Translations under genes and position numbers: made by a program
From: a virus
Lineage: Duplodnaviria > Heunggongvirae > Uroviricota > Caudoviricetes
Reading direction: 5' to 3' (one strand)
IMG/VR virus record: IMGVR_UViG_2684622775_000005
Length of the DNA: 35,878 bases
Notes under the pieces: model-generated
The model's database searches: none
What the model was told of the DNA's origin: nothing
Seen by the model: the letters and a program-made list of their open reading frames with translations, nothing else
Shown: piece by piece, positions 34,346 to 34,432 of the stretch
Numbering within the stretch: position 1 is the stretch's first letter
Layout: the number at the start of each line of letters is the position of its first letter

Positions 34346-34372
34346 AAAAAATAAGCCCGTGTAAGGGAGATT
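34346..34372. other. attR core (27 bp)
   Basis: Identical to 477-503. Confidence 0.85.
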
Positions 34373-34432
34373 ACACAGGCTAAGGAGGTGGTTCCTGGTA
34401 CAGCTAGCATTTTATGGGTTATGTTTTTCAGC
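34346..34432 (-). ncRNA. cyaR: sRNA CyaR (RyeE); 3' terminator hairpin contains the phage att core
   Basis: The minus-strand sequence reads GCTGAAAAACATAACCCATAAAATGCTAGCTGTACCAGGAACCACCTCCTTAGCCTGTGTAATCTCCCTTACACGGGCTTATTTTTT, which matches my recollection of E. coli CyaR; it ends in a stem-loop plus U-tract and lies next to yegQ in the same orientation. Confidence 0.75.

Follow-up and report, generated by a model that had tools for sequence, protein, structure and literature searches.

A P2-type prophage at the cyaR attachment site and the intact 3' end of the CyaR small RNA

When a temperate phage integrates at the terminator of a regulatory RNA gene, is the RNA left whole, and does its level come to depend on the prophage? 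The question is raised by a stretch of viral DNA of 35,878 nucleotides (IMG/VR record IMGVR_UViG_2684622775_000005; hereafter the window, meaning the whole stretch that was analysed). A preliminary description, made from the letters of the sequence alone, had placed a prophage inside the terminator of the small RNA CyaR and proposed that the insertion regenerates the 3' end of the RNA. This description holds, in that copies of an attachment core flank a P2-like genome and the bacterial flanks rebuild an empty site. We are highly confident that the window contains a complete P2-type prophage at the standard attachment site of Escherichia coli, the core of which is the 3' end of cyaR.

In an Rfam search of the whole window, a single RNA family was recognized, with one CyaR only. 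The family RF00112 (CyaR_RyeE) matched the minus strand at 34434..34349 with 100.7 bits (gathering score, 47; E-value, 3.5e-19) over the full model (positions 1–85 of 85). The minus-strand sequence from 34432 to 34346 agrees with the cyaR gene of E. coli K-12 MG1655 (b4438) at 87 of 87 nt. The positions 34346–34432 proposed in the preliminary description are thus exactly those of the intact gene of the 87-nt CyaR/RyeE RNA, and its naming of the RNA, made without database comparison, is borne out by both matches. From the identity to the K-12 RNA, Hfq binding and the regulation of targets such as ompX are likely to be retained. The promoter region of cyaR (34433–34482, minus strand) lies on the bacterial side of the right attachment junction, attR. 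It contains a CRP-like site, TTAGAAACCGATCACA, at 34482–34467, which agrees with the consensus at eight of ten positions and is centred near -42.5, as a sequence match only. Apart from the single base at 34461, the region is that of K-12 and of E. coli O157:H7 EDL933. This base, A in the window and G in both other genomes, belongs to the promoter spacer; it precedes the start by about 29 nt and has the CRP-like site on one side and the -10 region on the other. Further upstream is the bacterial gene yegQ/trhP (34517–35878, minus strand), assigned by its Pfam Peptidase_U32 domain and from the way in which RefSeq annotates the matching genomes. yegQ ends with its stop codon at 34517 and cyaR starts at 34432, in an order shared with K-12, EDL933 and the Kluyvera loci.

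The intrinsic terminator of CyaR occupies 34346–34381 on the minus strand, as judged from the predicted fold, a per-base map and a terminator scan of that strand. In the predicted fold, an 11-bp stem (34381–34371 paired with 34364–34354) encloses a loop of 6 nt (34370–34365), and the fold has an energy of -15.9 kcal/mol with a z-score of -5.5. The U-tract, UUAUUUUUU, extends from 34354 to 34346, and the first U of the tract (34354) is at the same time the closing base of the stem. Read on the plus strand, the same hairpin has no U-run after it.

The 27-mer AAAAAATAAGCCCGTGTAAGGGAGATT occurs in exactly two copies in the window, at 477–503 and 34346–34372, and is identical to the attP core as annotated in the phage P2 record. 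A repeat search gave a wider direct repeat (469–503 and 34338–34372), of which 28 bp are exact (476–503 and 34345–34372), the 28th identical base being the T at 476 and 34345. When up to three mismatches were allowed, the core still matched the window only twice and matched none of 100 shuffled sequences. The copy at 34346–34372 is that of attR, and it comprises everything in the CyaR terminator from the last 2 nt of the 5' half of the stem onwards, namely the whole loop, the whole 3' stem half and the U-tract. The earlier proposal that the 27-bp core forms the 3' half of the hairpin and the U-tract therefore agrees with the per-base map, to which the loop and 2 nt of the 5' half have to be added.

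The sequences beside the two cores are distributed as integration predicts, with the P arm at attR and the P' arm at attL. Bacterial arm, core and P' arm succeed one another at the left junction; at the right one the order is P arm, core and cyaR. In the P2 record, Int arm sites and the IHF site are located on the ogr side of the core, and Cox and Int sites on the int side. Mapped from that record, the P arm of attR (34283–34345, plus strand) contains Int arm-type sites at about 34283–34310 and an IHF site at about 34314–34347, and the P' arm of attL (504–617, plus strand) contains Cox sites at about 520–593 and an Int arm site at about 591–617. Compared with P2, 125 of 129 aligned columns are identical between ogr and the core at attR, and 164 of 165 between the core and int at attL. 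The preliminary description had also called the 3' end of CyaR in the lysogen phage-donated. The core does rebuild an intact 3' end, but a phage origin of these bases cannot be shown: because the attP and attB cores are identical, the crossover leaves no trace, and phage-donated bases are not readable within the 27 bp. Demonstrably phage DNA begins at 34344 and continues leftwards.

The state of the site before integration can be rebuilt from the flanks. When window positions 319–503 are joined to 34373–34516, the resulting 329 nt are the unoccupied yegR–yegQ spacer of EDL933, to which they align from end to end with three mismatches and no indel. As the empty site is rebuilt exactly, the insertion was precise and site-specific. 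The bacterial gene left of attL is yegR (1–318, plus strand), recognized from the match to the EDL933 spacer and by tblastn. The spacer at 319–503, beginning one base after the yegR reading frame, is the sequence directly downstream of annotated yegR in EDL933, and a tblastn search with the yegR translation found yegR-like sequence adjoining the core in E. coli loci. In K-12, yegR lies between yegS and a P2 remnant.

P2 Int is a tyrosine recombinase that, with IHF, exchanges strands inside the core common to attP and attB. By analogy, Int, IHF and Cox would act here as they do in P2. A P2-type Int, together with IHF on the P arm, would recombine the attP core with the identical attB core. As loop, 3' stem half and U-tract of the terminator all belong to the core, the right junction (P arm, core, rest of cyaR) is an unchanged 87-nt cyaR, whose own promoter lies on the bacterial side. 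At the left junction, made up of bacterial arm, core, P' arm and int, only an orphan 3' fragment of cyaR is retained. This fragment, the attL copy of the core at 477–503, was recognized from the exact repeat and from its fold, and it has neither a promoter nor the 5' half of the stem. Whether the orphan core could serve as a CyaR-like terminator for int transcripts was considered and rejected, as the CyaR hairpin does not form in the fold; its bases pair with those of the bacterial arm, as GGGCUUAU/AUAAGCCC, and no U-tract follows.

The DNA between the junctions (477–34372, about 33.9 kb) is a P2-like (Peduovirus) prophage. In a local blastn comparison with the P2 record AF063097, long colinear blocks with 96.5–97.7% identity were found at 476–6407, 9165–18536, 19830–22939 and 27422–34372, and their permutation relative to that record is the one expected for integration at attP. 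The best matches in a phage collection are Peduovirus records, P2 included. The P2 gene order from int to ogr is kept, with long open reading frames at the expected P2 positions, and gaps relative to P2 are limited to the old/tin, orf30 and Z/fun loci and the tip of the tail fibre. The P2-type tyrosine integrase gene int (583–1596, minus strand) adjoins attL; its product has the Pfam domains Phage_integrase and Int_N, and its DNA is about 97% identical to P2 int. At the other end is ogr (34025–34243, plus strand), the gene of a late-gene activator of 72 aa, which aligns with P2 ogr and K-12 ogrK and whose product is an Ogr/Delta zinc finger protein (Pfam Ogr_Delta; E-value, 1.1e-21).

Two other accounts of the element and its junctions can be given. 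According to one, chance or an unrelated repeat accounts for the 27–28 bp identity and the CyaR match is not genuine; nothing was found in its favour. The empty shuffles, the identity of the core to the annotated P2 attP core, the RF00112 score together with the complete identity to MG1655 cyaR, and the exact reconstruction of the empty site make this so improbable as to be negligible, and the reading is already refuted. According to the other, the element is a defective remnant and its junction, like that of K-12, a fixed scar. Only ogr-side remnants are indeed left at the site in K-12 and in many other genomes: at a threshold of at least 80% coverage of a 321-nt query, the attR junction was found in 1222 of 5426 complete E. 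coli genomes, whereas the attL junction with int was found in only 817 of the 5426. In the window, however, both att junctions are exact, all the long P2 blocks are present at about 97% identity with long reading frames at the expected positions from int to ogr, and the differences are confined to known variable loci and the tail-fibre tip, so that we regard a remnant as distinctly improbable. Judged from its gene content, the prophage would be viable, that is, able to excise and to form plaques.

Foreign DNA is present at three known variable loci of P2, namely old/tin, orf30 and Z/fun. At old/tin, a non-P2 block (6408–9134) encodes a 735-aa protein (6671–8878, minus strand) that matches PADLOC PDC-S06 (843.7 bits), Pfam AAA_13 and phrog_2801. 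PDC-S06 is a candidate defence family, and this AAA_13 protein is a candidate for anti-phage cargo. The orf30 locus has a non-P2 block at 18537–19829 with a reading frame of 389 aa (18634–19803, minus strand), for which no Pfam or PADLOC match was found and which matched only phrog_9373, a family of unknown function. The Z/fun locus (25083–27421) is replaced by two reading frames: one of 242 aa (25213–25941, plus strand), without a match in Pfam or the other family searches, and one of 256 aa (26370–27140, minus strand) with a DUF5677 domain. In the tail-fibre gene H, a 132-bp unit is present in 3.5 tandem copies, with 88% identity, at 22760–23215, and the P2 sequence matched by all of the copies occurs once in P2, at about 13252–13461. 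The C-terminal part of H (23204–24408) gave no blastn match to P2, and the adjoining region of the tail-fibre assembly gene G (24409–25082) is only about 77% identical to P2. The divergence of H and G probably represents a swap of a host-range module.

With the gene whole and a complete P2-type prophage beside it, a structural reading that no observation contradicted, the remaining question concerns the output of CyaR. Integration might change it through the new downstream sequence or through convergent transcription of ogr and the late F operon, acting on termination or as antisense RNA. The ogr and late F operon do converge on cyaR. Their intrinsic terminator (34255–34282, plus strand) consists of a hairpin at 34255–34276, with a fold energy of -20.3 kcal/mol, and a T-run of seven that ends at 34282, and it is annotated as such in P2. 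A terminator scan of the plus strand did not list it, although the direct fold and the P2 annotation show it clearly; an extension of the stem probably takes up part of the T-run. The distance from the T-run to the 3' end of CyaR is 63 nt, in close agreement with the earlier estimate of about 65 bp on the other strand. Transcription of ogr and the late operon that escaped this terminator, for example after derepression, would be antisense to cyaR, and the lack of a plus-strand U-run after the cyaR hairpin means that such read-through would not be stopped there. The bases just past the U-tract also differ, being AUGCAUAAGCCC in the empty site and ACGUACAACAA in the lysogen, and could in principle alter the efficiency of termination slightly. 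Against this, the full RNA, the hairpin, the U-tract and the promoter are those of strains without the prophage, except for the one base at 34461 (about -29), and the ogr terminator combines a strong hairpin with a run of seven T. In P2 lysogens the late genes are silent, and P2 is not known to be induced by the SOS response. CyaR was discovered and characterized in K-12 strains, the junction of which is the same, and this junction is present in 22% of complete E. coli genomes. An effect of integration on CyaR output is thus quite unlikely, and an altered CyaR level in the lysogen finds little support. It is a weaker possibility that late transcription after derepression runs antisense through cyaR and would tie the CyaR level to the state of the prophage. 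Because the RNA, its promoter and its terminator are unchanged and K-12 has the same junction, we infer that this lysogen makes CyaR as usual, with normal termination.

The site occupied by the prophage, which we take to be the classical 'locI' of Barreiro and Haggard-Ljungquist (1992), lies between yegR and yegQ/trhP in K-12 as in the window. The K-12 remnant PR-X (ogrK-yegZ') has the same 27-bp core, P arm, ogr terminator and cyaR 3' position, and from ogr to yegQ the two junctions match in 491 of 504 aligned columns. Across the ogr terminator, P arm, core and cyaR, the differences are restricted to about 12 nt next to the core. All that is left in K-12, however, is ogr with a fragment of D, without attL or int, whereas the window has a whole prophage with both junctions. 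In the RefSeq annotation of K-12, the 'cryptic prophage PR-X' overlaps the last 18 nt of cyaR. The site has also been tabulated: in Table 2 of Archer et al. 2011 (PMC3032704), 'cyaR RNA' is given as the insertion site of P2-type elements in the W, K-12 and B strains, these being Wphi2 (P2) in W, ogr-D' in K-12 and P2*B in B. A full-text literature search for cyaR together with P2 or attachment site found this E. coli W genome paper (PMC3032704) as the sole direct statement. The arrangement in the window is therefore the standard, documented P2 attachment site and is already known, a point not made in the preliminary description. Wphi2 of E. coli W and P2*B of E. coli B share the cyaR insertion site with the window, and the cargo of the variable loci probably differs between them and the window prophage. 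Nearly all of the other complete E. coli genomes match the attR query from the core rightwards only, and on the attL side, too, the match ends at the core in most genomes.

In the same Table 2 (PMC3032704), rybB and ssrA, the former a site of P2-type elements, also figure as insertion sites, as do several tRNA genes, and the sdsR locus has been described as a phage attachment site (PMC3333887). As in these integrations at the 3' ends of RNA genes (tRNA, tmRNA, rybB, ssrA and sdsR), the att core of the window duplicates the 3' end of the RNA, and an intact gene is found at one junction and an orphan 3' fragment at the other. The window differs from tRNA targets in that the RNA is Hfq-dependent and the duplicated part is an intrinsic terminator, not an acceptor or T arm. 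In addition, the integrase gene adjoins the distant junction, not the one with the intact RNA gene, unlike in the tRNA, tmRNA and sRNA 3'-end integrations. A different situation is seen in P2-like phages of Yersinia such as vB_YpM_46. They share D, ogr, the ogr terminator and most of the P arm with the window in nearly identical form but have another core, another P' arm and another integrase, which is 51% identical to P2 Int. In vB_YpM_46 (locus L027, 2745–2990), the sequence departs from P2 about 10 nt before the core (P2 numbering), and this looks like a swap of the att/int module with a sharp boundary. The idea that the core of these phages is fitted to another CyaR by co-evolution was rejected, since they have a different core and integrase module and no cyaR core.

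The bacterial side of the left junction has a history of its own. The left arm of attB (405–475, plus strand) has the appearance of a decayed P2-type P arm, from a repeat and an alignment: it forms a 75% direct repeat with 34278–34317. An alignment of this arm, and likewise of that in the EDL933 locus (L003), with the P arm of P2 shows the first Int repeat, TCGATGTGGTCAATG, preserved and the second degenerate, with 16 nt absent from the IHF region. Escherichia sp. MOD1-EC7003 (locus L026) has, in the alignment, a full-length intermediate form of the arm. A query spanning the arm matched 5405 of the 5426 E. coli genomes, and in the sampled non-lysogens the match was limited to the first 104 nt of the query (window 400–503). 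These similarities suggest that the flank downstream of cyaR in most E. coli may be the fossil of an older P2-type integration, a fossil attR. A search of the phage collection for a closer source of the relic arm returned only two records, both apparently with host flank. The wider reading, in which the empty-site flank is a decayed P arm and the CyaR terminator itself the product of an old, species-wide integration, with co-evolution of P2-type phages and the CyaR 3' end, seems to us unlikely.

The core is also found with CyaR in other genomes. The exact core was found at 21 places among representative genomes, of which 16 loci were scanned with Rfam. In 15 of the 16 it lies at the 3' terminus of a CyaR scored by Rfam. 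Kluyvera accounts for about eleven of the genomes concerned, the others being E. ruysiae, an Escherichia sp. and two records under the label Enterobacter hormaechei; the sixteenth locus was the second att copy in E. ruysiae. Homogenization of the core between Escherichia and Kluyvera by phages was considered but found no support, as CyaR as a whole is highly conserved. In this cross-genus sample, itself selected for the exact core, about one to four real changes between Escherichia and Kluyvera CyaR were counted by eye in the other 60 nt, the ungapped comparison being inflated by an indel. An unchanged core is unremarkable because the whole of CyaR is so conserved. In three Kluyvera loci (L010, L014 and L015), the core at the 3' end of cyaR is followed by a common flank, TGTGGGGTATGCAAAGAGTGTAACAAAGGAAGTGAGGACG, which may belong to another integrated element, and a K. 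intermedia locus (L025) and an E. coli locus (L007) have a common variant of the P2-type P arm beside the core. Several elements appear to use the cyaR core. In the CyaR terminator of Kluyvera sichuanensis (L013), the 5' half of the stem is GCCCGCGU against ACACGGGC in the core, so that a C faces an A in a C-A mismatch; in E. coli a neighbouring position is occupied by a G-U pair, and the stem is perfect in other Kluyvera loci.

In short, a temperate phage can land in the terminator of a regulatory RNA without damage to the gene, by a logic that is well known for tRNA and tmRNA genes. The significance of the case beyond correct annotation is small. For annotation, the boundaries of the prophage are to be placed here through the 27-bp core, and cyaR is not to be called disrupted. 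For work on CyaR in natural isolates, it means that about one in five complete E. coli genomes, K-12 laboratory strains included, has phage DNA right after the U-tract of this RNA.
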